Below, one piece after another: positions 7,388 through 50,964 of a stretch of DNA of 64,000 nucleotides. This DNA comes from Nitrosopumilus sp. (GTDB lineage: Archaea > Thermoproteota > Nitrososphaeria > Nitrososphaerales > Nitrosopumilaceae). Both the position numbers and the translations under genes were made by a program. How positions within the stretch are numbered: the stretch's first letter is position 1; the number at the start of each line of letters is the position of its first letter. The notes under the pieces were generated by a model. The model was not told the DNA's origin. It made no database searches and worked only from the letters and a program-made list of their open reading frames with translations. Where the stretch lies: contig OZ241981.1 of assembly GCA_965204345.1 (NCBI GenBank), forward strand, positions 32,001 to 96,000, in the 5' to 3' direction.

Positions 7388-8008
7388 TTATTCTAGCTTG
7401 ATGGTAATCTCCTCGCCATTTCCTATCGGGGATGTGGTGGTCTGCAATTTTGGGTTTTTCCTTAAATGATCTGATAACCTCCTCATCTCCTTTCTGTATT
7501 TTTCTGGATATATCATGTTGTCTGTGATGATTATTCCCCCGACAGAGACCATGGGCAGTACCATGTCAAAATACTTTATGACATTTTCCTTGTCTGCGTC
7601 AATTAGGACAAAATCAAAAAACTCCTCGAATTCTTTTTTTGATTTTAACTCTTCTAGTACGTTTGCAGCTATTCCCTCTTTGACTGTGACTGTTTTGCCA
7701 ATACCGGCATTTTGAAAATTCTCCCTTGCTCTTTTGATCTTATTTGGATTCTGCTCAATTGTGATAATTTTGCCTGCCTGCTCAGATATTGCCTCTGCAC
7801 ACCATATTGTGGAATATCCTGTGGACATTCCAATCTCAAGCATATTTTTTGCGTTCTTTAAGCGCAAAATCATGTTTAGCATTTCGCCTGTATCCCTTGT
7901 GATTGCAAGCATTCTGTCCTCTGGCAAAACATCCACTCTTCTTGTTTTTTCAAGGTTGGACTGTATGTCCAATTCCTTCAGTACTTTGAATATGGATTCT
8001 TTCATCAA
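7388..8008 (-). CDS. O-methyltransferase (class I SAM-dependent, caffeoyl-CoA type)
   Basis: LEIGMSTGYS, FDFVLIDADK, GGIIITDN motifs. Confidence 0.88.
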   Translation of the reverse strand: MMKESIFKVLKELDIQSNLEKTRRVDVLPEDRMLAITRDTGEMLNMILRLKNAKNMLEIGMSTGYSTIWCAEAISEQAGKIITIEQNPNKIKRARENFQNAGIGKTVTVKEGIAANVLEELKSKKEFEEFFDFVLIDADKENVIKYFDMVLPMVSVGGIIITDNMIYPEKYRKEMRRLSDHLRKNPKLQTTTSPIGNGEEITIKLE

Positions 8009-8092
8009 CTCTGATTCTTTTACAGAAATTTAACCTTGTCCTGATGAGGCGTTTTAAAAATATTTGATAGCTTATATTTAGTAAATATTTTT

Positions 8093-8485
8093 TTGAATTC
8101 AGGGATGACAACAAAGAAAAAGGCTGATCTATTGGACATAGTTCAGAAAATTCTCAAGTTGGACACCAAAATGAGATTTGCAGCCATAATTGATCCAAAG
8201 GGAAAGATCCGGGAAGCTATAATGAAAACGGGCAAAACCAATCTGAAATCCCAAAAGGAAGAAGAACATTTCTGTAAACAGGTCGCACAGAGAAGATCAA
8301 TGAGAAAAGAATTTGACAGGTCTCTTGGCAAAGTCAGATACGTTCATGTTGAGCGAGAAAAAGTCTCTCAAATGGTAATTTACACCAGACGAAATATTGT
8401 TTATTTCACTATGGAGCCTGAAATGCCAATTAATACCAAGATCAGGTTAATCACCAAAATCAAAAGAATCACTGCTGACCTCTAG
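8093..8485 (+). CDS. Thaumarchaeal DUF6659-like (roadblock/profilin-like) protein
   Basis: MRFAAIIDPKGK...MRKEFDRSLGKVRY...REKV pattern shared with 24183 and 29093. Confidence 0.7.
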   Translation: MNSGMTTKKKADLLDIVQKILKLDTKMRFAAIIDPKGKIREAIMKTGKTNLKSQKEEEHFCKQVAQRRSMRKEFDRSLGKVRYVHVEREKVSQMVIYTRRNIVYFTMEPEMPINTKIRLITKIKRITADL

Positions 8486-8514
8486 CAGTCCTTTTAAGAC
8501 CGCTTCTTGAACTC

Positions 8515-8868
8515 ATGGCCCTAAAAAAATATCTTGGTGATTCTAAAATGTTTGAATATGGCAAGCATTACCGCGAATGTCAGCAGCAAAACAGACCCTT
8601 TATCAAGGCCAAAACCAATCCTGCACATGGAAATTATTTTGTCCAGATGGATCTGATGACTTGCAACTATGAACTGTCTGAGCAGGAGCAAGATCAGATT
8701 GCAAAATTAATTCTAGATGAAATAAAGTACGTACAGGCAAAATCAAAACTGCCATTTAACGGATTTAACATAGATAAGGAAGTTGCGTGGTTTGATGGCG
8801 TATCCTCTAATCATGTGGAGACTTTTTGTACGTCCCTTTATGACCTGACCCAAAAATATCACTCTTAG
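8515..8868 (+). CDS. Hypothetical protein
   Basis: 117-aa ORF with normal composition in a gene-dense region. Confidence 0.6.
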   Translation: MALKKYLGDSKMFEYGKHYRECQQQNRPFIKAKTNPAHGNYFVQMDLMTCNYELSEQEQDQIAKLILDEIKYVQAKSKLPFNGFNIDKEVAWFDGVSSNHVETFCTSLYDLTQKYHS

Positions 8869-11662: not shown

Positions 11663-13477
11663 TTAGCTCAGTCTAGGCACAAAGATGTAGATTATGGCAA
11701 TTATCTCCAGCCTTCCAAATATCATCAGAAAGCTTAGAACGATCTTTGTTGCAGGATCTGTGTCAAAATTGATTATTCCTGCAGAAAGTCCTCCCGTGGT
11801 TATTACCCCTACTGATTCAAAAAATGCATCCTGGAACGGCACGTTCTCTATTTCTGCAAGATGCAGTCCTGACACTGCTGAGATTGATGGGAACAATGCA
11901 AGAATGATGAGTGTGGATATTAGCTCCTTTTTGGATTGCTCTGATAGCTTTGCCCTTTTTGCTTTGCTTAGCAATGCCGGAATGTCCCTTAGATGGAACA
12001 GTCTGAATATTTTCAAGCCTCCGGCAGTTGAAAAACCGCAACCCCCCACAAACATTAGTATTATCAGGACAGCATGTGCTCCTCCGTTTAATCCTGCAAG
12101 GCTTTCTTGCTGTAATCCTGCCGTGGTACTTGCAGATACTGAATAAAACGCACTCTGCATTGGATCCAGTCCGCTTAGCCCCATAAACAGAACAATTGCA
12201 CTGCTGAGAATCGCAAAATACGCCAGTACTTCTTTTCCAAGTTTTGGCGAAAGGAATTTTTTTCTTACAAACGCATAATGGAATGTAAATGGCAGTGCCC
12301 CTAGTATCATTGCCCCCATTAGGATTATGTGTTCCTGCCATAACAGCCCGTCAAGAATTGTGGATGTGGGCTTGAATCCGCCTGTCGCAAGTGTGCTCAT
12401 GGCCAGTGAAAAATTATCAATTATGCTTCCCTCATTAAAGATGTATAGCAGCAATGCAACAATCACAATGTAAATTGCAAAAATGACCGTAATGGTCAGG
12501 AAGAGCTCTTTCATATGCAGGGTTCTTCCTGATATAAAGCCCCTCATGGACTGCAGTTTTGATTCTGGATAGAACGCTGTAATTACCAGATAGATGAAAC
12601 TCATTCCTCCTACAAGCTGCGTATAGCTGCGAAAGAACGTGAAGCTTTGTGTTAGTTCTTCTGGCTTGTCAAAGAGGGATATGCCTCCTGTTGTAAATCC
12701 TGCGGCACTAGAAAAGAACGCATTTGCAAACACTTCCACATTGGTTTCATCACTGGGAAACACGTACAGATACGGCACCGTTCCAAACAGTGAGAGCAAA
12801 AACAGGCTTGAAAAGACCAGAATTGATGCCTGCTGCAGGTTTAGGCTTGATTTTTCACCATAAGAATTCAAAAAGAATCCTGTTACTAGCAAAAGCACCG
12901 TGGTGAGGTAAATTCCTGTCGCAGTTAATGGATCCTCTAGGACTGTCGCAACAATTGCAGGAACAAGCAGCAACACTCCTGCAAACTGCAAAACAAAGCC
13001 CAGGTTTCCCAAAATTGTCTTTACCGGCGGACTCAAAAGCCGAGGCGGAGTTGCAGTGGCATCCCTGATTACATTTGCAATAGTTGTTTGATAAACCATG
13101 CCAACGACCTGGTTTTTCTTTGATAATACCGGAAGCTTTCTGATGTTGTTATCTCGCATTTTGTGCAACGCTTCCTGCAATGTTGTTTTTTCACCAACTG
13201 TGATAAGCGGCGCACTCATCACATCCTTTAGCGTTGTGACCTCTGCGTAAACTGTAACATCGCTAACCTTGCTTAAAATGTCTTCATCTGTGACAATTCC
13301 AACCGGATTCCTTTCTTTGTCTGTAACAATTATGTCGTCTGTCTCATAGTGGCGCAGCATTCTGGCCGCTTCACTGGTTTGCGTATCTGAATTTAGGATC
13401 AAGACATCCTTGTCCATATAGTTTGTAACGTACTTGCTTAGGACATATGATACTGCCCGTTCCGGATTTGTTGACAT
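11663..13477 (-). CDS. trkH: CBS-domain-fused TrkH/KtrB potassium uptake membrane protein
   Basis: N-terminal CBS pair (VGIVTDEDIL; IRKLPVL) plus pore motifs FTTGG, LATGG, STTAG, ITTGG, and STAGGLKIFR, GRLEI. Confidence 0.88.
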   Translation of the reverse strand: MSTNPERAVSYVLSKYVTNYMDKDVLILNSDTQTSEAARMLRHYETDDIIVTDKERNPVGIVTDEDILSKVSDVTVYAEVTTLKDVMSAPLITVGEKTTLQEALHKMRDNNIRKLPVLSKKNQVVGMVYQTTIANVIRDATATPPRLLSPPVKTILGNLGFVLQFAGVLLLVPAIVATVLEDPLTATGIYLTTVLLLVTGFFLNSYGEKSSLNLQQASILVFSSLFLLSLFGTVPYLYVFPSDETNVEVFANAFFSSAAGFTTGGISLFDKPEELTQSFTFFRSYTQLVGGMSFIYLVITAFYPESKLQSMRGFISGRTLHMKELFLTITVIFAIYIVIVALLLYIFNEGSIIDNFSLAMSTLATGGFKPTSTILDGLLWQEHIILMGAMILGALPFTFHYAFVRKKFLSPKLGKEVLAYFAILSSAIVLFMGLSGLDPMQSAFYSVSASTTAGLQQESLAGLNGGAHAVLIILMFVGGCGFSTAGGLKIFRLFHLRDIPALLSKAKRAKLSEQSKKELISTLIILALFPSISAVSGLHLAEIENVPFQDAFFESVGVITTGGLSAGIINFDTDPATKIVLSFLMIFGRLEIIAIIYIFVPRLS

Positions 13478-14045: not shown

Positions 14046-14731
14046 TCTTTACATGTTTTATAATCAGATGGTTTTTTTCAGTTTTTTGGCAGTGTGCCCT
14101 AAATGAGCAAGAACCTCTTGTGAGTTAGAAATTAGTCTATTTGCATTGGCTTGCATCTTTGACTCCTAGGTGTCCTCTTTTTCTCCTGTGCTGTACCGGG
14201 TTCCTTCCTTTGGTCTGGCACTTTGCATTCAAGTGTCTGCTTGGACAAGACTGGTTCTGTTGCTCTTTTTCTTTTAGGCATTATCTATGACTGCAAATGT
14301 GGGCAATGGACACACTTGGTATCAAAGCACGCTTCATAATTCGGCAAACTCATCATCTATCAGATATAGCTTAGTTTGTTGGTTAATCATCAGCATTCTT
14401 TCTTATGGTTGGCAATGATATGTTATTAATATTATTATTATTCCGTCTGTCTGCCATGACTTTTTGATGTGATTTGTTTTAATTTTATTGTGGCCAATTC
14501 TGAAAAAGCATGCAAGCAGCATGTCGTACTGCAAATCACTGCTAGGTGCCATGGTGCAATCAAAATTACCAAGCACGGCAGTCCTAAAAGTGTATGATAC
14601 AAAGCGTCACATGTAGAGCTGTGGTTTAGCCGGACTAGCAATCAAAGAGGAATGCAAAGAGGCAAATTTGAGTGGGAACTTGCAAATGTTAGAACATGTG
14701 TCATAAAGGAATTGCTTGTAAAGCCTGAAAA

Positions 14732-14995
14732 CTAGTATCTGACCTTTCTGATCAGGTGCGGTTCCTTTAGCATAATTGTATTGTCGTCCTTTGTTGATGA
14801 CAATTCGACTTGCTTGAGATTGTGGCTTGTAATCACGATTAATGCCTCGCATCTTAAACAAAGGACTGTCTTGCCATTTGATCTTTCTTCCCTAACTAGG
14901 TCCTTTTCTAGCCTGTCCTCTTTTTGGCATGTTGGACAGAGCTTGGGCTCTTTTAGAATCATGATGATTTCCTTGATGAAAATGGTTTTTCCCAT
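14732..14995 (-). CDS. Zinc-ribbon hypothetical protein
   Basis: CPTC...CLRC. Confidence 0.65.
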   Translation of the reverse strand: MGKTIFIKEIIMILKEPKLCPTCQKEDRLEKDLVREERSNGKTVLCLRCEALIVITSHNLKQVELSSTKDDNTIMLKEPHLIRKVRY

Positions 14996-37965: not shown

Positions 37966-39123
37966 ATGATTTCAGACTCTGAAAATATTCGTAGAGCCAT
38001 CCTGTCTAGATGGCACGAATCTCTTTTAAGGCATGGCAATCTGTTCTCTTCTGATTTTGTGAGCGGTGCTAGTCCTCCGTCTGTATTTGTTGGATCATAC
38101 AACTACCCCAAAGTCCTCGTTGGTCCTATGGTGCCCCCAATTCATGGGGATACTAGTCTGTTAGATAGCCCTGAGCGATGGACAGGAAAGTCTTTAGAAG
38201 ACATTGTAAATTTTAGGCTCAATTTGGTCAGGGGCACACAAAAAATTCCAATAGGACAGACTGACGGGCGATACGTTGAAAATCTCCAAGAAGTTACAAT
38301 GTCTTCAAGGCCTATTGATTCTGATCTAGTTTTTCAGAGTTCTACTGCCCCTAGTGTTTCACTTGACGGTGAGAGTGCCCCTTTTGGTCCTATTGGCCAA
38401 ATAAAATCTGCAAAATTCTCTGCAAATGCTCCTGTAAAATCTATAGAAAAAACATACTATGACAAGGATCTAAAAGCTCAAGATGCTGTTTTAAATTTAT
38501 ATAATTCCGGAGTAGAAATTTCAAAAATCCAAAAATGCTTCAGTATTGGAATGCTCGGATGCAAAAGGAAGCTTGTTCCTACTAAATGGAGTATTACTGC
38601 AACTGATGATATTATTTGCAAATCGCTTACCGAGGACGTGTTAAACTACGGCCTGATTGACTCGCACAGGGTCTTTTCGTATGAGCATTTGGGGAATATC
38701 TTTTGCGTGGTATTGTTTCCACACCGATGGGTCTATGAAATGATTGAGGCCTGGTATTCTAACGGTGTCTTGGGTTTTGGCTCTGACTGTGAGGATGCCC
38801 GCGGAATTGATCATCCTCCCACTATTGCCGGTGCATATTTTGCTGCAAAACTAGGTGTTTTAGAATACCTTGTCAAAAATAAAGTTCAAGCAGGAGCTGT
38901 AATTTTACGAGAAATCCGTCCCGAGTATGCCATCCCTGTCGGTGTGTGGCAAGTGAGAGAGGGCGTCAGGGAGGCAATGAATAAAAAGCATCTCTTTGCC
39001 GATGATTTTGAGCACGCACTAACTTTGGCCTCAAATAAAACGAGCATCAGTAAATCTGAGTGGCTCATGCATGGAAATGTTGTCGAACTGACCAGACAGA
39101 AAGCTATTTCTGATTTTTTTTAA
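37966..39123 (+). CDS. nreA: Archaeal DNA repair protein Nre family
   Basis: SPPSVFVGSYNYPKV, LVPTKWSITATD, PVGVWQVRE, C-terminal PIP box QKAISDFF. Confidence 0.9.
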   Translation: MISDSENIRRAILSRWHESLLRHGNLFSSDFVSGASPPSVFVGSYNYPKVLVGPMVPPIHGDTSLLDSPERWTGKSLEDIVNFRLNLVRGTQKIPIGQTDGRYVENLQEVTMSSRPIDSDLVFQSSTAPSVSLDGESAPFGPIGQIKSAKFSANAPVKSIEKTYYDKDLKAQDAVLNLYNSGVEISKIQKCFSIGMLGCKRKLVPTKWSITATDDIICKSLTEDVLNYGLIDSHRVFSYEHLGNIFCVVLFPHRWVYEMIEAWYSNGVLGFGSDCEDARGIDHPPTIAGAYFAAKLGVLEYLVKNKVQAGAVILREIRPEYAIPVGVWQVREGVREAMNKKHLFADDFEHALTLASNKTSISKSEWLMHGNVVELTRQKAISDFF

Positions 39124-39189
39124 AATCTGCTGATTTAATTTTAAATATCATAATTTTGCATAAGTATTTTTTTGGGGGTTATTAGTAAA

Positions 39190-39736
39190 ATAATGAACTA
39201 TCTACCTTTCCTAACAATTCAAAAGATCATCAAACATTTCAGAAAAAGCTGCAGACAGAGGCAGTAAATACGCAGAAAAAAACTCTTAATCAATAATAAA
39301 GAACTTTGATAAACTCTGTAAGGAAAAATATGACAAACAGGTGGTGAGACAATTAAAAGCGATTCGTGATGAATATTTTACTAAAACTGGAAGAAGAAAT
39401 ATGACAAGCAGGAGATCAGACCAATAGCAGAATATCAAAAAATAGATCTAGGTATTGTTTACAAGTTACTCCAAGAGTGGATCAACTGGAACAGCAAGAA
39501 TATGCTTCTAAATGATATCCCAGTTTTTTCATGTATTAAAAAAATATCTCAGATATCACAACATAAAGATCACAAAAGAGGATATGGAAAATTCTCCGGA
39601 TTTTCCATACATGATCAAAGAGGAAAAACACCCACTGACAAAAGAGGAGCTGCAAGATATTGAGTCTGAGCAACAGGAAAAATTATCTCAAAATTATAGG
39701 ACAGTTATCAAGTGGATTAAGATTGATAGGACTTGA
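39190..39736 (+). pseudogene. Decayed N-terminal part of a thaumarchaeal tyrosine integrase
   Basis: Fragments IIKNFDKLCKEKY / VYKLLQEWINWNSK / LKKYLRYHNIKITKEDM...EEKHPLTKEELQDI in shifted frames with stops; no catalytic domain. Confidence 0.55.
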
Positions 39737-39759
39737 CAAGTACATTCTAATAAATATCA

Positions 39760-40085
39760 AAAAGTGAATTTTTCAGAATGAAAATATTATTACATGGTAT
39801 TTAGAAAAATTATCCATAAATTAGAGATTTCAATATGTAAGAATATCTCCTAAAATAAGAAATATCATTACACGGTATGATTTAGAAAAGAGAATAAATA
39901 TTCAAAGATTAGCGTGAAAAATACCAAAATCTACGTATAAGCCTGAACAATTTCTATGTCTGATCTTTAGAATTTAGGATAGATTGATTGGATTATCTTT
40001 GCATCGGAGAAGGGTATATTATCGAGAAGAAAACCATCTCTGAATTAAATCAAAAATGTTTGAAGTTCAAAGATGGATAAAATAT
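39760..40085 (+). pseudogene. tbp: Decayed TATA-binding protein gene
   Basis: VRISPKIRNIITRYDLEKRINIQRLA*KIPKSTYKPEQFLCLIFRI*D, then in shifted frames IFASEKGIL / KTISELNQ; aligns to the second repeat of the TBP at 46536-47075; stops at 39915 and 39975. Confidence 0.8.
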
Positions 40086-40127
40086 ACACTTGTCTAATCT
40101 TTTATTAGAGTTTTGTTGGTGGAAATA

Positions 40128-41474
40128 ATGGTGACACAGATAGAATTTGAGAAAGAAAATCTTCCAGAAGGATGGATTGTAACAGCAATTAGCAACATAA
40201 CAGAAACTGTACAAAAAATTAATCCTAAAGATACCCCCAATAAAATATTCCATTATTGTGACATAAATTCGATCGATAATAGTAGATTACAAATTACCAA
40301 TCCAAAACAAATTTTGGGTAAGAATGCACCATCTAGAGCAAGACAACTAATTAAGAAAAATGACATATTATTTTCCACTGTTCGAACATATTTGAAAAAT
40401 ATTGCGATGGTTCCAGAACATTTAAATGATAATTTGGCATCAACAGGATTTTGTGTTATACGAGCAGGAAAAATTAATGAAAAATTTATGTTTAATTATA
40501 TACAATCATCTCAGTTCATTGATCTAATAAACAGTGCACAAAGAGGAATAAGTTATCCAGCTGTAAGAAATAATGATGTACATAATAGCATTATTCCTCT
40601 CCCCCCACTCAACGAACAAAAACGCATCGTTACAAAAATCGAATCAATCTTCACACAGATTGATGCATGTAAAGAAGAATTAGATGTATTTGCATCGCAG
40701 ACCAAATCAGTTTCTTATAGTTTACAAACATTGAAGGGAAATATATTAAAACAAATGTTTGAAGAATTAAATAAAAAACACAGAGCAGATATGTTAGAGA
40801 AGGTGTGTATTGATATCCAATCGGGATTTGCTCAAGGGGAAAAAGATGTAAAAAATGGAATAATTCATCTTAGAATGAATAATATAGATACAAACTTCAC
40901 AATGAATTTTGAACTACTTCGGACTATCAATGCTACAAATAAACAAAAAGAAAAATATCTTTTACAAAAAAATGACATACTTTTTGTGAATACGAATAGT
41001 GTAGAATTAGTAGGCAAATCTGCTATTTTTACATTTGATAAAGACTGTCTTTATAGTAATCATTTAACACGTCTGCGCACTAATATTTCTATACTAGATC
41101 CAAAATTTCTCTTGTATTATTTTTATTATAAATGGATAAAACATGATTTTCGAAGTATATGTAATAAATGGATAAATCAAGTGGCAATTAATACTACAAA
41201 AATTAAACAACTACAAATTCCTCTTCCTCCCCTCAACGAACAAAAACGCATTGTTACAAAAATCGAATCAATCTTTGACAGGATTGATGTAAAACAAGAG
41301 GAAATGAAAAAGATTGAGATGCAGTTAAAATCAATTCCCGACAGCATTAATACATTGAAAGGCAGCATATTAAAAAAAGCATTTGAAGGTAAGTTGGTTC
41401 CACAGAATCCAAATGACGAACACGCATCTGTACTTCTTGAGAGGATAAAATCCCAAAAATCTAGGAAAATATAA
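40128..41474 (+). CDS. hsdS: Type I R-M specificity subunit (hsdS copy 1, complete, two TRDs)
   Basis: LPEGW, two IPLPPLNEQKRIV conserved regions, SILKKAFEGKLVPQNPNDE tail. Confidence 0.95.
   Translation: MVTQIEFEKENLPEGWIVTAISNITETVQKINPKDTPNKIFHYCDINSIDNSRLQITNPKQILGKNAPSRARQLIKKNDILFSTVRTYLKNIAMVPEHLNDNLASTGFCVIRAGKINEKFMFNYIQSSQFIDLINSAQRGISYPAVRNNDVHNSIIPLPPLNEQKRIVTKIESIFTQIDACKEELDVFASQTKSVSYSLQTLKGNILKQMFEELNKKHRADMLEKVCIDIQSGFAQGEKDVKNGIIHLRMNNIDTNFTMNFELLRTINATNKQKEKYLLQKNDILFVNTNSVELVGKSAIFTFDKDCLYSNHLTRLRTNISILDPKFLLYYFYYKWIKHDFRSICNKWINQVAINTTKIKQLQIPLPPLNEQKRIVTKIESIFDRIDVKQEEMKKIEMQLKSIPDSINTLKGSILKKAFEGKLVPQNPNDEHASVLLERIKSQKSRKI
40593..40666 (+). repeat. Inverted repeat A (left copy), 74 bp; partner 47835-47908
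   Basis: 73/74 nt identical to the reverse complement of 47835-47908. Confidence 0.95.
41233..41296 (+). repeat. Inverted repeat B (left copy), 64 bp; partner 47157-47220
   Basis: 57/64 nt identical to the reverse complement of 47157-47220. Confidence 0.9.
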
Positions 41475-41499
41475 ACACATGACATAAATTTACAAATAG

Positions 41500-42189
41500 T
41501 TGTTTATTCAAATTTCCAAGATAAAGAAAAAATATAATATCTTTACTAATAACATGCAAATGATTATGAGATCTAATTTACAAAATGATACTGGCCTAAA
41601 AATTCACAATAAAATAATTTTACAATTTTTTAAAGATTGTAAAGATAAAAAATTGTTATCCAATACAATAAAACCACAACAGAATAATACTATATGTACT
41701 CGTTGGGATATATCTAAGTTAACCGATCAAGCAATTCAAAAAATACGTAAACATAGGATTGATTTAAAAAACAATGAAAAAACACAATTTCTAAGTGATA
41801 AAGAACATGATGCCTTACAGTTTTCTCGCTGTGTGTCTTTTTTGAGAGACACTACCGAAGATTTGAAAATTTCATTACAGTTAATTATTGATCCATCACA
41901 AGTAAAATCATGTACTGAGCTTGGAAAATACCTTAACGAAATTTATAATAAACTAGGTTATAATGACGACAAGAAATCCAAAATGAATCGTGCCTTTCAA
42001 AAAGATCTCAGAAATGCATTAAGTCATAACAATTATTCGTATAAATGTGATAAAAACCATGTAAAGAGCATAACATGGCAAGATCATAATCAAAAACACA
42101 CATGGAATCAAGTGGAATTGTCCAAATCCATCTCAAAGATAATTTGCATAAATGGACTAATTGGCAAAATAATTAATGGGAAATTCTGA
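41500..42189 (+). CDS. Hypothetical protein with HEPN-like RxxxxH motif
   Basis: DLRNALSHNNY in a helical context; AT-rich; true start probably near 41554. Confidence 0.6.
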   Translation: MFIQISKIKKKYNIFTNNMQMIMRSNLQNDTGLKIHNKIILQFFKDCKDKKLLSNTIKPQQNNTICTRWDISKLTDQAIQKIRKHRIDLKNNEKTQFLSDKEHDALQFSRCVSFLRDTTEDLKISLQLIIDPSQVKSCTELGKYLNEIYNKLGYNDDKKSKMNRAFQKDLRNALSHNNYSYKCDKNHVKSITWQDHNQKHTWNQVELSKSISKIICINGLIGKIINGKF

Positions 42190-42197
42190 TACCGTGC

Positions 42198-43697
42198 TTA
42201 TTTTGGGATTTCCTTGTTGATAATGTCTTTTATATCTTCAAATGACTTGATCATGCCCTTTCTTAGATCAATAAACTGATCAATTAATTTGTCTGGTGGC
42301 AGAACAATTGTTTCAATTACATCTGTTGGATTGTTGGAGTCAAGATTGAAATCCTGAATGTCTTTAACATTAATTTTCCATGCATTTTCATTTGATGTCT
42401 TCTTTTTGAACCATTTTTCAATCTCTGCAAAGTCGTCATATGCGATTGGGTTTGACTTTGTATATTTGGGATTCTTTGCACGAGTTACTCCACGCAATCG
42501 TTCGGCTACCTTCATTTGATAATACCAAATTTCTTTGGTTGGTCCTGTCTTGTCAAAAAACAGTATGTTTGTTGCAATTGATGTGTAAGGCTCAAAAACA
42601 GTTTTGGGCAGCCTAATTATCGTATGCAAGTTAAATTCTTCAAGAAGTTTTTTCTTGATTTTAGAGGCAACGCCTCCTGCAAACATTGGACCATCTGGAA
42701 GAATAATTCCACACCGTCCTCCTTCTTTTAGAGAATACATGATGTATAACAAGAATGAAAGAGCAGTATCTGATGTCTGCATTCCTACAGGTAGATTGGA
42801 TGAAATTCCTTCCTCCTCTTCCCCCCCAAATGGTGGATTCGTTATGATAAGATCATACTGGTCATTTTGAGAAATTTCTCTCAGAGGATTAACAAGTGTG
42901 TTTGCTCTGATAATGTTTGGTTTGTCTACCTCATGAAGAAGCATATTCATCATTCCTAAAAGATAAGGCATGGATTTTTTCTCGATCCCAAATAATGTGT
43001 TTGTAGTTAGTTTCTTCAAATCTCCTTTTGTTTTTTGTTCATGTCTTAGAAACTCCAAAGATTCTACCAAAAATCCACCTGTACCACATGCAGGATCTAA
43101 TATCTTTTCAGATTTTTTTAGACTAGGGTTGATTTGATTTACAATAAACCGAATTACAGGTCTTGGTGTGTAAAATTCTCCACTATTTCCTGCGGCATCT
43201 CTCATCTCAATTAACATATCTTCATAGAGTTTTGCCATGGTGTGAATGTCATCAGTATTGATAAAATTTACCTTATCTATCAGATTAATAATCTGTCTGA
43301 GGAGGTATCCACTGAGTATTCTATTGTTTAATTCTTTAAAGATCGTTGCAATGACATCTCTTTGTTCAAAACCTTTATCACCTGTCAGTTTTGAGAGTTT
43401 TGGAAATAATTTATTATTTACAAATGAGATTAGATCAGGACCTGTTAAAACCTTGACAGTACGTCCTTTCTTATCTTTTTCTGCTGCCCAATCCTGCCAT
43501 CGTAATCCCTTTGGTATTGCCTCCACATATTTTCTATTTAGAGCAGCCCTCTCTCTTTCAAAATCATCAAAACTCTTTAGGAATAAAATCCATGCAATTT
43601 GAGGAATTCTATCAACATCAGTATTAAGACCTGCATCTTTTCTCATTAGATCTCTTGCAGATTTTATTATAGAACGAAGTGAATGTGCATCCATCAT
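42198..43697 (-). CDS. hsdM: Type I R-M methyltransferase subunit (m6A)
   Basis: GEFYTPR, LDPACGTGGF, NPPF, IIRLP. Confidence 0.96.
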   Translation of the reverse strand: MMDAHSLRSIIKSARDLMRKDAGLNTDVDRIPQIAWILFLKSFDDFERERAALNRKYVEAIPKGLRWQDWAAEKDKKGRTVKVLTGPDLISFVNNKLFPKLSKLTGDKGFEQRDVIATIFKELNNRILSGYLLRQIINLIDKVNFINTDDIHTMAKLYEDMLIEMRDAAGNSGEFYTPRPVIRFIVNQINPSLKKSEKILDPACGTGGFLVESLEFLRHEQKTKGDLKKLTTNTLFGIEKKSMPYLLGMMNMLLHEVDKPNIIRANTLVNPLREISQNDQYDLIITNPPFGGEEEEGISSNLPVGMQTSDTALSFLLYIMYSLKEGGRCGIILPDGPMFAGGVASKIKKKLLEEFNLHTIIRLPKTVFEPYTSIATNILFFDKTGPTKEIWYYQMKVAERLRGVTRAKNPKYTKSNPIAYDDFAEIEKWFKKKTSNENAWKINVKDIQDFNLDSNNPTDVIETIVLPPDKLIDQFIDLRKGMIKSFEDIKDIINKEIPK

Positions 43698-43728
43698 TAC
43701 TCATAATCGTATCGACATTAAATATGAT

Positions 43729-46095
43729 TCAGTTGTCTCTATACAATTCCTTTGTTAATTGTATTATTGCACCATCATATTCATCACCATCTTTGAATCT
43801 GTGATTGATGATTTCAGTAGGGCCTCCAAACTGTTTGAATTTTGGCAATTTCAAAACTCCTCTTTCCTCCAACTCTTGATACCCCTCCTCTGCATAATGA
43901 TCCAATATCACCTCTAGAACTTCTCGTGCTTTGTTCGGATATTTCTCCAAAAATGCCTTTTTATGTACAGAATTGATCCTCTCTAATCGAGTTTTTGCAT
44001 CTGCATTAAATGCAAAATGTAAGAGCATATCAAATGAATCAATCTTAGCCATCTGAGTGATTTCTTTAAGATGTGAAAAACTAACGCCTCTCTCTTCTAG
44101 TTGCTTTACAAAATGCTGTCTTTTTTCAGGATCTGTCCATATCTTGTATAGTTTTGTTTGTTCATCATTTACTAGACGGCGAACAGTCTCTCCAGTATAA
44201 TCTTGATAAGAAATAAGCCTATTCTGATTAATTGATTGATCAAAAATTAAAACCGATTCACCACGAATTTCTACTTTTTTTCCATTTATGTGATATGTTT
44301 TAATTGTTTGTGATTCTTGTTCTTCTTCTGCTTTATCTTCTAGTGCCTCTTTTACTGCATTTCTTCTTTTCTCTTCTGCACGTTCTAAGATTTTTTTTTC
44401 TTTTTCTTTAGTAATTATTTCTTGTTCTTCTTCAGTTTCTGCAATTGCAGGACCATCCCATTCTACATCCTCAAACAATCTACTAGTTTTTCTATAATCT
44501 ATAATTGAAAACCACATCTTATCTTTTGGTTCATAGACACGGGTACCTCTACCAATAATTTGTTTGAATTCAGTCATGGAATTAATGCTCTTATCTAATG
44601 CAATTATCTTGCATGTTGGAACATCTACGCCTGTTGACATTAATCTAGATGTAACTGCAACAATTGGAAAATCTTTGTTTGGTTCCTGGAATTGATCCAA
44701 GTATTCTCGTCCTATTTCACCTTCAGCAGAAACTATTCTGACACAATAGTCATGTCTTTCTCCAGAATAATTTCGAATTAGTTTAGTCATTGCTTGTGCA
44801 TGTTCTGAGTTTTGACAAAATAAAATCGTCTTGTTATATTTTTGATTATTTTTCTCCAAAAAATCTACAAGGTGTTTTGCTACGGTCTTTCGTCTCTCAT
44901 CAACAATTAAAATTCTGTCAAAATCTTTATAGCTGTATGTTTTGTCATCAAGTATCTTTCCATCTAAATCCGTTTCCCCTGGTTTTGGAATATATCCCGT
45001 CAGATCAATTTCAAGATTAACCCTGTGAATCATGTATGGTGCTAAAAAGCCATCTTCAATTCCTTGTTTTAGACTGTATGTGTATATAGGAATACCAAAA
45101 TAATCATACGTATCTTTATTTTCGTCCTTTCGTTTAGGAGTTGCAGTCATGCCTATGTGAACAGCATCTTTGAAATAATCCAATATCTTTCTCCAGCTCC
45201 CATCCTCATTGGAGCTTCCTCTGTGACATTCATCAATTATTATGTAATCAAAGAAATCTTTTGAATATTGCTTGTACAGCTCACAATCCTCTTTATCTAC
45301 ATCAAGTGCTTGATATAGTGCAAAATACATACTATATGCAGTCTGTGCAACTTTTTGGATCTTGTGTCTTGCTTCACCAAAACCTGCAAATGCATTATTT
45401 TTTGCTTGATCTAACAAAACGGTTCGATCTGCTAAAAATAAAATTTTTGGATGTGGGGTATCTTTTTTCCAGAGTTTTTGTGCAATTTGATAAGATATGA
45501 ATGTCTTGCCAGTTCCAGTCGCAAGATTTAAGAGTACGCGCTTCTTTCCTGCAAGAATTGCTGTTAATGTGGAATGGATTGCAATTTCTTGATAGTACCG
45601 AGGTTCCATGGGAGATCCTCCTGGATCTTTTGAACTTCGATCCAACGACTCTAATATAACATTCATTTGTTTTTTATTAAAATTTATACCTTCTTGGAAT
45701 CTCTCTAGTAATTCTTGAGGTGTTGGAAATTTATCTATTGTTTGTTGTTGTTTTTTGGAAAAGTCATATTCTTCAATTTTCTGTCCATTTGTTGCAAAAG
45801 CAAATTTTAACTCCATTTTTTCAGCATATTTTATTGCCTGACTCATTCCTTCATCATGTGGTTTGTCCCATGCTTTAGCTTCTATTACTGCAATTTTGTA
45901 ATCATCACCCAACTTGAGAATGTAATCAGCTATGATTGGTTGTGCCCTTTTTCCAGTACGGCCATCAGGAGTAATTCTGCCTTCATTAATTTTATATTCC
46001 CTAATGATTTTATCTAATTCCCAACCAGATTCTGCTAGCTTGGGATCAATATGTCTCATACAAGTGGTTGATTCGGACATCTTTTCTTCAGTCAA
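43729..46095 (-). CDS. hsdR: Type I restriction endonuclease subunit R (EcoAI/type IB-like)
   Basis: ADY...IEAK nuclease motif, RYYQ, ATGTGKT, DECHRG, TATP, QIIGRGTR, EcoEI-type C-terminus. Confidence 0.95.
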   Translation of the reverse strand: MTEEKMSESTTCMRHIDPKLAESGWELDKIIREYKINEGRITPDGRTGKRAQPIIADYILKLGDDYKIAVIEAKAWDKPHDEGMSQAIKYAEKMELKFAFATNGQKIEEYDFSKKQQQTIDKFPTPQELLERFQEGINFNKKQMNVILESLDRSSKDPGGSPMEPRYYQEIAIHSTLTAILAGKKRVLLNLATGTGKTFISYQIAQKLWKKDTPHPKILFLADRTVLLDQAKNNAFAGFGEARHKIQKVAQTAYSMYFALYQALDVDKEDCELYKQYSKDFFDYIIIDECHRGSSNEDGSWRKILDYFKDAVHIGMTATPKRKDENKDTYDYFGIPIYTYSLKQGIEDGFLAPYMIHRVNLEIDLTGYIPKPGETDLDGKILDDKTYSYKDFDRILIVDERRKTVAKHLVDFLEKNNQKYNKTILFCQNSEHAQAMTKLIRNYSGERHDYCVRIVSAEGEIGREYLDQFQEPNKDFPIVAVTSRLMSTGVDVPTCKIIALDKSINSMTEFKQIIGRGTRVYEPKDKMWFSIIDYRKTSRLFEDVEWDGPAIAETEEEQEIITKEKEKKILERAEEKRRNAVKEALEDKAEEEQESQTIKTYHINGKKVEIRGESVLIFDQSINQNRLISYQDYTGETVRRLVNDEQTKLYKIWTDPEKRQHFVKQLEERGVSFSHLKEITQMAKIDSFDMLLHFAFNADAKTRLERINSVHKKAFLEKYPNKAREVLEVILDHYAEEGYQELEERGVLKLPKFKQFGGPTEIINHRFKDGDEYDGAIIQLTKELYRDN

Positions 46096-46535
46096 TTTTC
46101 AACATAAAATTTTCAACATATTTCTAGATAAATGTTCTTTTTGAAAAATCAAATATTTTAGAATAAAATCAAGATTTGAATCTGCGAAATATTTTTGAGA
46201 ACTGATCTATTATACAGCTAACCATAGTGTGTTTATATCAGATCAAGAATAGGTGTGACTCTGAAAATATCTGGAATTTCTTGTATGGTGTAACAAGCAT
46301 TAGCTTGAACTCCTCTGTACAGACTGATTTTCACCTCCAATCATAACATTAACAAGTATTTACTTGTTGGACAGTAACGCAAAATATGCAAAATGAGAGA
46401 TGTTCATTAGATCTACAATTGTGGTACTTCGCACTATTGGATCTTTGGTTTTTATTTAGATTAGGACATATCTAGACAACTGATTACAAAATAGATTCAA
46501 TCTTAACAATTATTAGAAAAAATAAGAAAATTTCA

Positions 46536-47075
46536 CTAGATACATCTTACCTTGATATCAAATAATGCAGAATTTACTTCTGCAATGGTTTTTGCCCCTG
46601 CAATAACTCCTTTTCCTGATGCAAACAAAAGTGCTACACAGCTATCTTGAATTCTATATATCAAACCGGGAAATTGTTCTGGTTCATACATACTTTTTGG
46701 TAATATTCTTACAAGTTTTTCTATTGGCAAATTTTGTTTTAAATCGAATCGCGCTACAATATTTTGCACTTTGGGAGTAATTTTAATGAGTTTTGCAAGA
46801 TTATAATTATCCAGTATTTTTATTGCTTTTTTTAATTCTTTTTTAGATTGTGCAGGATTCTTTGTTCCAACTGAAATAAGTTTTCCATTTCCAAATACAG
46901 TAACTCGTCCAACCATCAAATCATCTTTTACATACCTACACCTGTATAAAGCAATATTTGAGCTGAGAAAGGGATATTTGTTAAAAGAAGCAATATCTAT
47001 TTTCTGTTTAAGATCTGCTGTAGTTACAGTGTTTTGAATTTTAATTCCTGCTACAAGCTTTGACTCTTTTTGCAT
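46536..47075 (-). CDS. tbp: Divergent TATA-box binding protein
   Basis: Two TBP repeats: IQNTVTTADL...VFGNGKLISVGTK and VQNIVARFDL...YEPEQFPGLIYR...LFASGKGVIAGAK. Confidence 0.9.
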   Translation of the reverse strand: MQKESKLVAGIKIQNTVTTADLKQKIDIASFNKYPFLSSNIALYRCRYVKDDLMVGRVTVFGNGKLISVGTKNPAQSKKELKKAIKILDNYNLAKLIKITPKVQNIVARFDLKQNLPIEKLVRILPKSMYEPEQFPGLIYRIQDSCVALLFASGKGVIAGAKTIAEVNSALFDIKVRCI

Positions 47076-47086
47076 TAAAATTCATG

Positions 47087-48346
47087 TTACCCTATCGCAT
47101 TAAAAATGAATGTATTATTCACATATGTGATTTTTTGTTTGATTAAATATAATATCTGCTTTACATCAATCTTGTCAAAGATTGATTCAATTTTGGATAC
47201 GATGCGTTTTTGTTCGTTGAAAGGCGATAGTAAGACAGGAATAGTTTTCATTGCTGTCTGATTAAGTTTCAATCGTGTTGTCCCAGTTACATATCCATGA
47301 TAATTCACCTGATTCAAATAGTGGCAAAGAAATTTGTTGATCAATAATCCAGATATTCCTTTAAGAACATGAGCATGATTATTAACCCAACTTTTTCCAT
47401 TAACAATGTAGGCTTTGTTTTTGAAAGTTTCAAAAAATGGTGCACCGTCTTCTCCCAACAAAACCAATTCTTCATCAAAAATATAATCATCAATCAAGCC
47501 AACTTGACCAGTAGCACCATAATATGGAATATTTCCAGTACGATTTTTCCGTTCACTAGAATTTACTGGTATTCTTTTTCTGTCCCAAATTTCTACAATA
47601 TCTTCCAAATTGATCTTAATCCAACCTTCTGGAAGATTCTCTTTCTCAAAAATCAACTCTTTCTCAGAACTCTTATGCAATCTCCTCAAAAGCATCTCTG
47701 CTGGCTCATCAGCTGGATCCTGTGAAACCAGCTTGCCCTCAAAGGCCTGCTTGAGCACGCTACTTCTTAGCATCCCCAGGCTGCCAGAAGATGACTTTAT
47801 TTGAGATGCAAGTGCCTCCAGCTTGTTTTGTGCCGCATCAATCTGTGTGAAGATTGATTCGATTTTTGTAACGATGCGTTTTTGTTCGTTAAGTGGGGGG
47901 AGAGGAATTGAATATATTGCCAGCTTTTCATATTTTATTCGAGGGTGTTGAACTCCTGTCATATTTCTATTAGCAAAACGTACAACCTGACTGGTAGATA
48001 AAAATAACATAATGTATTTGCTAACCAGATTGTCATTTTGTTGGAAAACCAATATGTCTGTGGAACACACTCCGTTAAAATCTGGAATTGCTACTTTGTT
48101 TAGATATGGACGTAATTTTCCATAAAGAATATCTCCCTTACTAAAGACATTTTTTGTGCTCTTTGTATCTTTTGAATTGGCCTTTCCAATAATTTTTCTT
48201 GAATTACTTTCTATGTGTTCTAATCCCACAAAAGGTTGATTTTTCTCATTCTTTGGATCAAATTTTCTTTTTGATTGATTCAGAACATTCAGTAAATCTG
48301 TTCTAATCCACCCTTCTGGAAGATGCTCTTTCTCAAAAATCAACAT
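47087..48346 (-). CDS. hsdS: Type I R-M specificity subunit (hsdS copy 2, two TRDs, C-terminal conserved helix truncated)
   Basis: LPEGW x2, KLRPYLNK, IPYYGATG, WVNNHAHVL; homology ends abruptly after IDVKQ. Confidence 0.9.
   Translation of the reverse strand: MLIFEKEHLPEGWIRTDLLNVLNQSKRKFDPKNEKNQPFVGLEHIESNSRKIIGKANSKDTKSTKNVFSKGDILYGKLRPYLNKVAIPDFNGVCSTDILVFQQNDNLVSKYIMLFLSTSQVVRFANRNMTGVQHPRIKYEKLAIYSIPLPPLNEQKRIVTKIESIFTQIDAAQNKLEALASQIKSSSGSLGMLRSSVLKQAFEGKLVSQDPADEPAEMLLRRLHKSSEKELIFEKENLPEGWIKINLEDIVEIWDRKRIPVNSSERKNRTGNIPYYGATGQVGLIDDYIFDEELVLLGEDGAPFFETFKNKAYIVNGKSWVNNHAHVLKGISGLLINKFLCHYLNQVNYHGYVTGTTRLKLNQTAMKTIPVLLSPFNEQKRIVSKIESIFDKIDVKQILYLIKQKITYVNNTFIFNAIG
47157..47220 (-). 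repeat. Inverted repeat B (right copy)
   Basis: Partner of 41233-41296; marks the point where hsdS2 homology stops. Confidence 0.9.
47835..47908 (-). repeat. Inverted repeat A (right copy)
   Basis: Partner of 40593-40666. Confidence 0.95.
48305..48337 (-). repeat. Inverted repeat C, 33 bp (tttgagaaaga..atcttccagaagg.tggatt); other copies 47618-47650 (-) and 40146-40178 (+)
   Basis: Three near-identical copies encoding FEKE(N/H)LPEGWI at TRD starts. Confidence 0.88.
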
Positions 48347-48559
48347 ATCAATTCTTTGTTTCTTTAATTTAAATTAGTCAAGTAACAGTTAAAGTGAAAA
48401 ATAGAATTTTATAAATCATAACAAATGAATCTCCTGCAATTGTTGCAAAGCTTTGAAATTATTGTACTATACTCCAAGGAGATTGTCATTGTGACATAAA
48501 CGTACTTTGTCTTTTCTTCAGATATTATAGTTAATGGTTTTATCTAGTTTATTAGCCAT

Positions 48560-49486
48560 TTAGATCTCTATTTTATACATGACTTTTTTGAATTCCCTAA
48601 AGAGATCTTCTAGGGTAGGCGTCAGATATACATGATCAAGACCATTTTTGTGACCCATTAGCTTTTCTGCAATGTTATAGTTTACTGAATTGTCCAGTTT
48701 TAAGACAGTATTGTATCGCTTTCTAAAACCATGATCTGCTTGGACGTCAAAACGATTTTTTGATTTTATTCTTTTCAGGTTACTTTTCTGAATTATTCTA
48801 TAAATTGCAGAACGAACGCCGTTCCAACCTAATTGTTTTGGAAGGAATTTGGTTGTTGCAAATATGGGAGTATCTTTGTAAAATATTTCTCCTTGATTTT
48901 TACGATATTCATGATAAGCTTTCAATGCCTTGGTTGCTTGTGGTGTAAGAAATGCCCAATACTCCTCAACATGTCCCGCATAAAGCAATATGCCAGTGCA
49001 ACCATATGACATCTTCATCATGTGTTTTATGGATAAATCGTGATCAAAAACTCCCACCCTTGCTCCTGTTGAACTAAAAAAGTACACCAAAGCTTTGTTC
49101 CTAAGGCTTGTTGTGTTGGATAATAATTTCTTGATTTCTTTTGTCGTATATGCCCTCAAGCTTTGCGTTTTTTGCTTTTGTGGGAACATTTTGTTTATGA
49201 TGTTCCAGTTAAGATTAATCTCATTCATTATACAGAAATGCTTTATGCCCTGAAACTTTGATGGGATAGAATTGGGGTTTGTAGTACGCTTTAGCTCGAT
49301 TAAATAATTCTCAAGATTATACTGCAAGTCTGTATTTGGAATACTTGTTAGTTGATTTTGGGATGTAATGTTTGCAAAATTTAAAAAAGAGTTAAGATGT
49401 GATGTATAATTCTTTTTTGTGTATTTTGATTTTATCGACTCTTCAAATAATAATGAACATCGATGTTTAGTTATTAAATTACTCAT
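48560..49486 (-). CDS. Tyrosine recombinase/integrase
   Basis: STGARVG (R), HGFRKR (H-x-x-R), LMGH...HVY (H, Y): catalytic set intact. Confidence 0.9.
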   Translation of the reverse strand: MSNLITKHRCSLLFEESIKSKYTKKNYTSHLNSFLNFANITSQNQLTSIPNTDLQYNLENYLIELKRTTNPNSIPSKFQGIKHFCIMNEINLNWNIINKMFPQKQKTQSLRAYTTKEIKKLLSNTTSLRNKALVYFFSSTGARVGVFDHDLSIKHMMKMSYGCTGILLYAGHVEEYWAFLTPQATKALKAYHEYRKNQGEIFYKDTPIFATTKFLPKQLGWNGVRSAIYRIIQKSNLKRIKSKNRFDVQADHGFRKRYNTVLKLDNSVNYNIAEKLMGHKNGLDHVYLTPTLEDLFREFKKVMYKIEI

Positions 49487-50208
49487 GTATTATTTTATTG
49501 TAAAATATTTATTTTTGTACATATGTTTATGAAATTAGAGCATCTTAATTTTTAGGATCATAATACTTTATCAAGATTGTTTTATATTCCCAGCATAAAA
49601 TCACAAACAGATTATTCTCTGATGATTTGGCATCTTGTAATATTTCCAAAATTGTTCCCATCTTTAAGATATGATTGCCTGCAGCTCATAATTAGTCATA
49701 CTGATAAAAAATATCGTTAGATTTACGTATGGAATTAAGGTCCAGAATGCCAAGTATCAATCTTTGCAGAAGTTAATATAACCTGGTGTAAAATATTGCC
49801 CTACACCTAAAATTATTACTGTAAAAACCAAAGAAAACCCAGAATAGTCTGCATTGGATTCTATTAATGAACTAACTGATGATTTGGACAAAACTTGGTG
49901 TTTCTTAGTTTAACTAAAATCAAATCCTGATTATAAAGACATTAATTTTTTTCCATATCATATGCATATGCCAAAGGGCATCAAAGGTAACTATCTTGCG
50001 CAAATTTGACACTTGCAGATGAATTTGATTACAGTTCATCAAGAAATGCCAATTTTGAATCCATGAACAATTACGTAACGTAATCATCATCTTCTGGGGC
50101 ATGTGTGCGTGCGTTTCTACTCTATCTTTTTTTTCATCATTGGAATTATCTGCTGATCTGCCCTAATCAGAGAGCATAAATCCTAGATTTAAATAAAAAA
50201 ATGAAACG

Positions 50209-50964
50209 ATGAATGAAGATTTGGCGGGAACTGATTATTCCAAATATGGCAAATACACAGTTGATGATTCTCTTGAATTGTCCCTGCCTGGAACCACTAT
50301 AAAATTTGAAAAAATAAGCGAAAATGCTTTTTCATATTTTAGAGAGGATTCTGAGGGCAAAATAACTGAAAAAATGATCCCTGTTCATTCTGATGAATTA
50401 AAGATTGAAATGGCTCCTATCAGGCCCCTTAACCATCCGGCAAGACGTACCGGATACGTCTTTTTAAAATTTGACAAGGAAATCTATCTCAGCCAAAACT
50501 CTGCGGCTAGCATCTTTGTCCACTGCCCAATCGAAGTTGGCATTTTCATAGTTAATGGACCTGCCAGAGAATCCCTGGATTGGATTACGTGCAATCCCCT
50601 TAATTCTAGGTTTGGCCTGTATGGCCCTCCTGATACCGGAATTTTGTGCAAGTATGCCAAAGTCACACTGGCTACTGACTTTGCAGATTCTGTTCCCTAT
50701 GTTGAATGTGTGATGAAAGTTGTCATTGAAAATAATCTGAGTTCCGGGCAAACAATTAGCAAAATAATTTTCCCAATTACTGATAATTCCCTCTACTATG
50801 AAGACTCTAAATCTGTCTTAGATGGAATCAAAGTGACTTTGAAAAAGCGGGCAGTTGTCAGTATTGCAGATGTCCAAACTGCCGTATTGGATACTGACTG
50901 GAAAAAATCCCCCACATGGGAAGACAACACAAAAAATACCTCCATGGAGATGGGATTGGAATGA
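50209..50964 (+). CDS. DUF432 domain protein
   Basis: PIRPLNHP...CPIEVGI...LYGPPDTGILCKY; adjacent to mscS as is common in archaea. Confidence 0.75.
   Translation: MNEDLAGTDYSKYGKYTVDDSLELSLPGTTIKFEKISENAFSYFREDSEGKITEKMIPVHSDELKIEMAPIRPLNHPARRTGYVFLKFDKEIYLSQNSAASIFVHCPIEVGIFIVNGPARESLDWITCNPLNSRFGLYGPPDTGILCKYAKVTLATDFADSVPYVECVMKVVIENNLSSGQTISKIIFPITDNSLYYEDSKSVLDGIKVTLKKRAVVSIADVQTAVLDTDWKKSPTWEDNTKNTSMEMGLE

Follow-up and report, generated by a model that had tools for sequence, protein, structure and literature searches.

A probable fossil TBP gene, of a different sub-lineage from the resident TBP, in a type I R-M island of Nitrosopumilus

The DNA at 39831-40085 of the window (the whole 64,000-nt stretch of a Nitrosopumilus genome analyzed here) is, with a probability that we put at roughly 0.8, a nonfunctional fossil, the 3′ half of a divergent-clade TBP gene belonging to the sub-lineage typified by the TBPs of genomes G159 and G146 and unlike that of the intact TBP resident in the same type I R-M island. 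The fossil is ordinary in itself, yet it is a dated marker of turnover in the locus. More interesting than the fossil is the link among TBP, R-M, and recombinase genes, of which we found no description for archaea in the literature searched.

Results

Identity of the remnant

When the protein encoded by the resident island TBP gene (46536-47075) was compared with the 64-kb window by tblastn, a match was found at 39837-39995 on the forward strand (24 of 53 residues identical, E value of 4e-12), the other non-self matches having E values of at least 0.93. Frameshift-aware protein-to-DNA alignment widened this match to 39831-40085, up to the natural C terminus, where ...FEVQRWIKY of the remnant pairs with ...FEVEKWINY in G146 and ...FEIQRWIK in G159. 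The alignment score was 222 with the G159 TBP (51/82 residues identical), 204 with that of G146, and 190 with that of metagenome contig L124, compared with 160 for the resident TBP (34/78 identical) and 85 to 99 for canonical TBPs; 20 shuffled versions of the remnant DNA scored 31 ± 4, with a maximum of 40. An earlier note on this DNA, made from the letters alone, had pointed to a hidden TBP pseudogene just upstream of hsdS1, and these scores bear it out; the peptides that it quoted are indeed present in the three forward-frame translations of 39700-40110. Its interval, 39760-40085, holds for 39831-40085, but the remainder, 39760-39830, is not demonstrably TBP.

Only residues ~95 to 180 are recognizable, i.e., the second TBP repeat. 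Similarity to the repeats of the TBP family (Pfam PF00352) is thus present, but the two tandem repeats that form the saddle are not: the DNA upstream is pseudo-integrase, no trace of an N-terminal TBP repeat was found upstream of the remnant, and extending the alignment in that direction gains only 3 score units. Nor is there an open reading frame, since the two in-frame stops (Table 1) are accompanied by frameshifts near 39992, 40027, and 40056. The FASxKG motif of the divergent TBP clade is kept. In the contigs of metagenome runs X1 and X2, the sole variant within the remnant is a C-to-T change at 39942, which replaces the conserved Pro in the motif YEPEQFPG with Ser. The remnant lies ~110 bp after the pseudo-integrase and 28 to 44 bp before hsdS1, and a search of 38900-50400 against Rfam gave no match.

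Table 1 Features of the island, its flanks, and its inverted repeats (window coordinates)
Feature	Coordinates	Strand	Remarks
Nre	37966-39123	+	
Island	39126-50019		10.9 kb, between Nre and DUF432
Pseudo-integrase, intB-type tyrosine recombinase	39391-39722	+	N-terminal residues 4-115 of ~316 aa; three frames
TBP pseudogene	39831-40085	+	Second repeat only; stops TGA 39915-39917 and TAG 39975-39977; ~3 frameshifts
hsdS1, 453 aa	40113-41474	+	Pfam Methylase_S 5.8e-23, two stretches; alternative ATG start 40129
ORF, 229 aa	41500-42189	+	No match in Pfam, PHROGs, or PADLOC
hsdM	42198-43697	-	Pfam N6_Mtase 5.3e-63 and HsdM_N
hsdR	43729-46095	-	Pfam ResIII 4.1e-38, EcoEI_R_C 2.4e-26
Intact divergent TBP, 179 aa	46536-47075	-	Pfam TBP 1.9e-31; PDB 1MP9 TBP 4.8e-30
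hsdS2, 419 aa	47087-48346	-	Pfam Methylase_S 6e-33
intA, intact tyrosine recombinase	48560-49486	-	PHROG 216 integrase 2.5e-8; Pfam Phage_integrase 1.6e-5 (below cutoff)
DUF432	50209-50964	+	
Inverted repeat	40593-40715 (hsdS1) / 47786-47908 (hsdS2)		82%
Inverted repeat	41233-41296 / 47157-47220		89%
Inverted repeat	40146-40185 / 48298-48337		88%

Lineage of the remnant

Divergent TBPs were gathered by comparing the resident TBP with 151 family genomes and a six-sequence profile with 401 genomes. The maximum-likelihood tree made from them has 31 rows and 186 columns; the partial TBP of L124 was left out, and that of L125 and the fragments from G375, G306, and G165 likewise stand outside it. 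The remnant fills 43% of the columns, so that its placement is based on ~80 aligned residues of decayed sequence. The 28 divergent rows split from the 3 canonical ones at 100/100 with the remnant among them, which, together with the alignment scores, places it in the island-type clade and not with the housekeeping TBPs, as the earlier note had expected. Within the divergent group, the remnant joins the G159 TBP with a support of 100/98 (86/90 with G146 added), whereas the resident TBP pairs at 100/100, in a different group, with its allele from contig C3 of this assembly. The identities run in the same direction, at 62 to 64% for the G159 TBP and 42 to 44% for the resident TBP.

Forcing the remnant into one clade with the resident TBP lowered the log likelihood by 23.85 and was rejected by the AU test (p 0.00074), which was run once the tree was known, on a hypothesis that the earlier note had already named. 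Because TBPs of other genomes are closer to the remnant than the resident TBP is and the AU test rejects a joint clade, the old inverted duplication within the island that the note had offered as one origin is rejected, and assembly from different modules is consequently favored. The TBPs of the source genome, G000, comprise three canonical and two divergent ones (that of the window and one at 228 kb on contig C1), plus the C3 allele.

The island and its resident genes

The island (Table 1) carries a single type I R-M system, whose two hsdS genes are in inverted orientation. Empty sites of the kind that mark an integrated element are found both in populations and in relatives. One contig assembled from metagenome run X1 passes directly from 39125 to 50020 at a depth of 217, versus ~30 over the island, and the spacing between Nre and DUF432 is 56 to 66 bp in relatives G164 and G167; it is 1.6 kb in G162, G168, and G153, where in G162 it holds a gene for a DUF1722 protein and a family-less ORF. 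The island is absent from some natural populations. At its limits, 39125/50020, no att-like direct repeats are evident, and the 64-kb window has no tRNA genes. The ~530 bp from intA to the right limit (49487-50019) contain no called gene. PADLOC gave no match for the island TBPs, the integrase, or the 229-aa ORF, and no relative was found among viral contigs. The intA product is 60 to 70% identical to the integrases adjoining TBPs in G063, G329, G401, and other genomes.

The resident TBP gene starts 11 nt past the hsdS2 stop. It differs from its C3 allele by 22 synonymous and 9 nonsynonymous codons (pN/pS ratio of ~0.11), and by this measure it is a working gene under purifying selection. Its N- and C-terminal halves are 69% and 62% identical to the G159 TBP and 67% and 74% identical to the TBP of L042, in a check for chimerism by identity alone. 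A 25-residue run, YVKDDLMVGRVTVFGNGKLISVGTK, is identical in the resident and G159 TBPs and is lacking in other members of the resident's sub-clade, which hints at a local mosaic in the TBP.

Both arms carry an integrase, a tbp, and an hsdS gene, and to this extent the quasi-symmetry ascribed to the island stands; the arms are not mirror images, however, for, reading inward, the order is int-tbp-hsdS on the left and int-hsdS-tbp on the right.

The left-arm recombinase

A DNA search with 39126-40112 among 101 genomes of the genus found matches in 9, G000 included, and the stretches homologous to the left arm proved to be the N termini of a tyrosine recombinase, intB. With intB queries, tblastn gave three matches in three frames, at 39391-39543, 39527-39661, and 39654-39722, with summed E values of 8e-26 and 5e-18 for the G185 and G159 homologues, respectively. 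The reading of the left arm as pseudo-integrase, pseudo-tbp, and hsdS1 is therefore correct, with the addition that the pseudo-integrase is of a family different from that of the right-hand integrase (24 to 30% identity between intB and intA, with E values of 0.02 to 1e-4). This difference explains why comparison of the left arm with three integrases (window intA and those of loci L002 and L034) by tblastn gave a best E value of 0.6 and why its six-frame pieces found no match in Pfam (E ≤ 1) or PHROGs. The catalytic domain is absent. A 51-nt segment occurs twice in tandem, at 39305-39355 and 39376-39426.

The intB homologue of G215 is intact (316 aa), that of G159 is split, and that of G185 ends in a fused hsdS-like tail. 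In the last of these (loci L221/L226), the ORF at 1467-2552 of L221 joins the N-terminal two-thirds of intB to the hsdS-like C-terminal tail and is followed by a HicA/HicB-like pair, as read from the translations, and then by an intA gene. At the G215 locus (L231, 1090-13837), hsdR and hsdM genes like those of the window (79% nucleotide identity) lie between an intact intB and an intA gene. The locus has three hsdS genes and lacks a TBP, and its hsdR-hsdM block is in the opposite orientation to that of the window.

Haplotypes and arrangements

Evidence on the arrangement of the island comes from the assembled contigs, as distinct from the reads, of four public runs; runs X5 to X8 may be the assembly's own source and are not independent. 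The inverted repeats shared by hsdS1 and hsdS2 measure 33 to 123 nt and are 82 to 94% identical overall (the three in Table 1 among them). Contigs with opposite-strand joints were found in X2, at 41280/47172 (depth of 21.5, with a shorter side of 255 letters), and in X1, at 40593/47616 (depth of 8). Contigs of both X1 and X2 also lack 687 bp of hsdS2 (47638-48326), lost between two direct repeats in that gene, so that in those populations hsdS2 is of half length.

Contig C3 (10,621 bp) holds a second island haplotype, the counterpart of window positions 38900-48763, in which Nre, the pseudo-integrase, the remnant, hsdS, TBP, and hsdR all lie on one strand. The hsdS gene after its remnant differs from that of the window, its TBP is 95% identical in amino acids, and its hsdR and hsdM have no match to those of the window at the DNA level, their closest protein relatives being in G401 and G159. 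At the end of the contig are a second hsdS gene and then the end of intA, and the inverted repeat between the two hsdS genes of C3 is 750 bp long and 99.6% identical. Contig depths in X5 and X7 suggest that C3 is a minor variant. The live TBP shares the strand of the remnant in both C3 and X2, where it comes immediately after the hsdS gene downstream of the remnant; its place in the window is in the other arm.

The island thus has two inverted hsdS genes with shared internal repeats and an adjacent site-specific recombinase gene (intA, beside the dead intB), as an hsdS inverton does. Inverted isomers are represented in contigs by the opposite-strand joints and by the inverted state of C3, which may come from different strains. 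Recombination at the repeats shared by the hsdS genes would flip the middle segment carrying tbp, hsdR, and hsdM, and this would account for a live tbp that follows either hsdS gene in different populations.

Between the window and C3, the Nre flank is 99.5% identical, the pseudo-integrase (39387-39744) ~87% identical, and the live TBP 94% identical. The block at 39745-40135, which comprises the remnant and the 5′ end of hsdS, is 99% identical, with 3 mismatches and the same lesions; 1 mismatch falls at the edge of the remnant (the equivalent of 40086). The mosaic of 39387-39744 and 39745-40135 may mark gene conversion or a crossover point, and either the remnant block has a younger common ancestor than its neighbors or it has been kept for some cause.

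Divergent TBPs at other loci

Outside G000, 23 loci in 19 genomes among the matches listed (E ≤ 1e-39) were found to carry a divergent TBP, complete or fragmentary, with the two TBPs of G329 counted as one locus, as were the two neighboring halves in G375; L042 duplicates the first locus of G333. Contexts of ~8 kb were read by tblastn with a fixed query set or by Pfam. Among these listed loci, R-M genes were present at 16 of 23, a tyrosine recombinase at 12 of 23, and one or the other at 18 of 23. By contrast, R-M or integrase genes were found at none of 20 canonical TBP loci in the same tblastn alone, without Pfam. The recurrence that the earlier note suggested for the tie between tbp, hsdS, and integrase genes is supported by these counts, which take R-M genes as a whole. 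Because related genomes are not independent, we applied no statistical test to them.

The R-M genes were of type I at 12 loci (G329, G146, G387, G401, G159, G306a, G277, G375a, G211, G389, G364, and G333b), type II at G063 and G306b, type IIG at G368, and type ISP at G375. Neither R-M nor recombinase genes were found at five of the 23 listed loci: in G413 and G078 the TBP is at a contig edge, in G039 and G028 it has housekeeping neighbors, and at G375-946k it is beside a D5-type primase. In G159 (L207, with the order hsdR, TBP, hsdS, int) and G389 (L217), an intact TBP gene immediately precedes hsdS in the same orientation; in G063, G333, G329, G401, and G375, a TBP gene is directly beside an integrase gene. 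A TPR gene is near the divergent TBP in G165 and G375 alone. In metagenome contigs L123 and L124 the TBP abuts hsd genes; L122 and L125 are too short to tell. In scans for the TBP of the island clade, 1 of 80 listed genome-contig loci and 4 of 80 listed metagenome-contig loci carried it, the rest being mostly canonical.

In G000 itself, each of the two type I loci on C1 includes a divergent TBP, and no R-M genes lie within 8 kb of any of its three canonical TBPs. The second of these type I loci (L034, C1:228657-238140) has a divergent TBP 45% identical to that of the window; its three hsdS genes are of half size, and its recombinase (448 aa) represents a third family. The G329 locus (L203) has two intact divergent TBPs of different sub-clades, at 7908-8426 and 11852-12385, 4 kb apart and in opposite orientations, together with intA, half-size hsdS genes, hsdR, and hsdM. 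At a G375 locus (L214), TBP residues 1 to 73 (8296-8517) and 82 to 168 (14721-14980) lie on one strand 6.2 kb apart, with a type ISP R-M gene between them and an Mrr-like gene after them. Other partial TBPs are an N-terminal fragment upstream of a methylase in G306 (L209), an N-terminal half in G375 (L215), and a frameshifted copy in G165. To judge from the partial copies in these three genomes, TBP decay is common in such islands.

The association does not run equally in the other direction. An N6_Mtase match (E ≤ 1e-30) was found in 19 of the 101 genus genomes, and among the matches listed, 4 of those 19 have a divergent TBP (G000, G159, G387, and G401) and 13 do not; in G215 and G185, where R-M of this kind is accompanied by intB and intA, there is no TBP. 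As most R-M loci are without such a TBP, it is an accessory of the islands and not a requirement.

Origin of the remnant

We propose that the left arm once held intB and, after it, a TBP of the G159 type followed by hsdS. A deletion running from about residue 115 of the recombinase to about residue 95 of the TBP would have taken the catalytic domain and the first TBP repeat, and the present fusion of two stumps would be its product. An intact series of intB, TBP, and hsdS was not found at any locus, and intB is absent from all of the other TBP loci examined; lacking such a template, the deletion is a step that we infer.

Of the alternatives, the one that survives best, although we hold it to be unlikely, is the head-to-head fusion raised by the earlier note, in which two complete elements, each with a recombinase, a TBP, and an R-M system, were joined and the left one was then largely deleted. 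Two recombinase families and two TBP lineages at opposite ends of one island are what such a fusion would leave, and in G329 one R-M/integrase locus contains two TBPs, 4 kb apart, that belong to different sub-clades. Against it, the island has a single hsdM and a single hsdR and no remnants of a second set, and in G215 the same hsdR and hsdM genes are flanked by intact intB and intA without a TBP. G185 likewise pairs intB with intA, so that the layout with two recombinases has the look of one type of locus. A single locus of this type, gaining and losing modules, fits at least as well as a fusion.

We consider it improbable that the remnant has been kept for a new role, as a promoter or leader of hsdS1 or as a homology anchor for cassette exchange. 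Such a role would agree with the 3 mismatches between haplotypes in the block at 39745-40135, compared with ~13% in flanking DNA, with the single substitution in the remnant across the X1 and X2 contigs, and with an A/T-rich box that, in our own reading, lies ~25 bp before the hsdS1 ATG. However, no Rfam match was found, and the Nre flank is just as conserved, at 99.5%, so that recent shared ancestry explains the identity of the remnant block.

Less probable still is that the remnant is a displaced piece of a TBP gene that served as the target of site-specific integration, as tRNA genes do for other islands. Five genomes (G063, G333, G329, G401, and G375) do have a TBP directly beside an integrase, and partial TBPs are known from G375 (L214 and L215) and G306 (L209), but the break points vary (at about residues 58, 73/82, 88, and 95), with no crossover site in common, which argues against site-specific integration into TBP, and the island ends showed no direct repeat.

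Least credible of all is an inverted duplication of a resident hsdS-tbp module, one copy of which then decayed: it would suit the 82 to 94% inverted repeats of hsdS1 and hsdS2 and the two inward-facing arms with int, tbp, and hsdS, but the remnant is 42 to 44% identical to the resident TBP versus 62 to 64% to that of G159, a clade uniting the remnant with the resident TBP is rejected by the AU test (p 0.00074), the arms differ in gene order (left, tbp-hsdS; right, hsdS-tbp), and the recombinases are of two different families.

Discussion

The hsdS invertons of phase-variable type I R-M systems are well known in bacteria, for example, Streptococcus pneumoniae (PMC4948785, PMC7672463), and multi-hsdS systems have also been noted in archaea (PMC7672463). 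Like the bacterial invertons described in the available text of these papers, the Nitrosopumilus island has inverted hsdS genes that share internal repeats, a tyrosine recombinase gene that adjoins hsdS, and alternative arrangements in sequenced populations. Unlike them, as far as that text goes, the island has an archaeal host and an embedded TBP gene; its repeats are just 82 to 94% identical in the window haplotype (99.6% over 750 bp in C3), and the whole hsdR-hsdM-tbp block is inside the invertible segment. It also has two recombinase families, one of them dead, and its isomers are known from contigs.

TBP-domain proteins are contained in the TOTE/TALON conflict systems, TOTE standing for TPR, OB, and TBP plus an effector, which have been described for bacteria (PMC12458937, citing Aravind, Iyer, and Burroughs 2022). 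The island resembles these systems, in the part of that account available, in encoding a TBP-fold protein in a defense or conflict neighborhood. It differs from TOTE as there described in that the TPR and OB-fold partners are missing beside the TBP, no TPR or OB gene being found among the island ORFs, and in that PADLOC gave no match to these TBPs.

Cryptic integrated elements of Thaumarchaeota carry type I R-M systems and XerC/D-like integrases, and a basal factor, TFIIB, has been noted on thaumarchaeal mobile elements (Krupovic et al. 2019, PMC6563490). The main text of that paper contains neither "TBP" nor "TATA," and the available text of a review of archaeal tyrosine recombinases (PMC8371274) does not contain "TBP." Like the elements in the first of these accounts, ours is an integrase-bounded island with hsdM, hsdS, and hsdR in an ammonia-oxidizing archaeon. 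Unlike in those elements as that text presents them, the basal factor here is TBP, and its associates are R-M and recombinase genes instead of conjugation genes.

Extra TBP and TFB paralogues occur on haloarchaeal replicons, and the island TBP is, like them, a mobile or accessory copy of a basal transcription factor. Bacterial R-M systems often bring their own transcription regulator in the form of controller (C) proteins, which are of the helix-turn-helix type. The island protein, in contrast, is a TBP and only a candidate regulator of the hsd genes. We infer that the live TBP is cotranscribed with the hsd genes and serves the island. Our best guess, a tentative one, is that it is an island-specific transcription initiation factor.

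It is similarly conceivable, though we would not call it probable, that divergent TBPs in general are working parts of archaeal R-M/recombinase islands, whether as dedicated factors or as recombinase helpers, and that their lineages are swapped with the cassettes. One possibility is that a dedicated TBP for transcription of hsd and int from their own promoters would be, by analogy, the archaeal counterpart of the R-M controller proteins; another is that the island TBP is a DNA-bending helper of the hsdS-inverting recombinase. Competing lineages of TBP would then supplant one another at cassette swaps, leaving fossils such as that at 39831-40085.

The locus unites three things seldom combined in archaea: a type I R-M system with multiple hsdS genes and natural inverted isomers, two tyrosine recombinase families, and a TBP paralogue under purifying selection. 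If TBPs of this kind do act on island genes or recombination sites, they would represent a new use of the archaeal (eukaryote-like) transcription machinery by mobile defense islands, and the ammonia-oxidizing archaea would gain a testable case of epigenetic phase variation.
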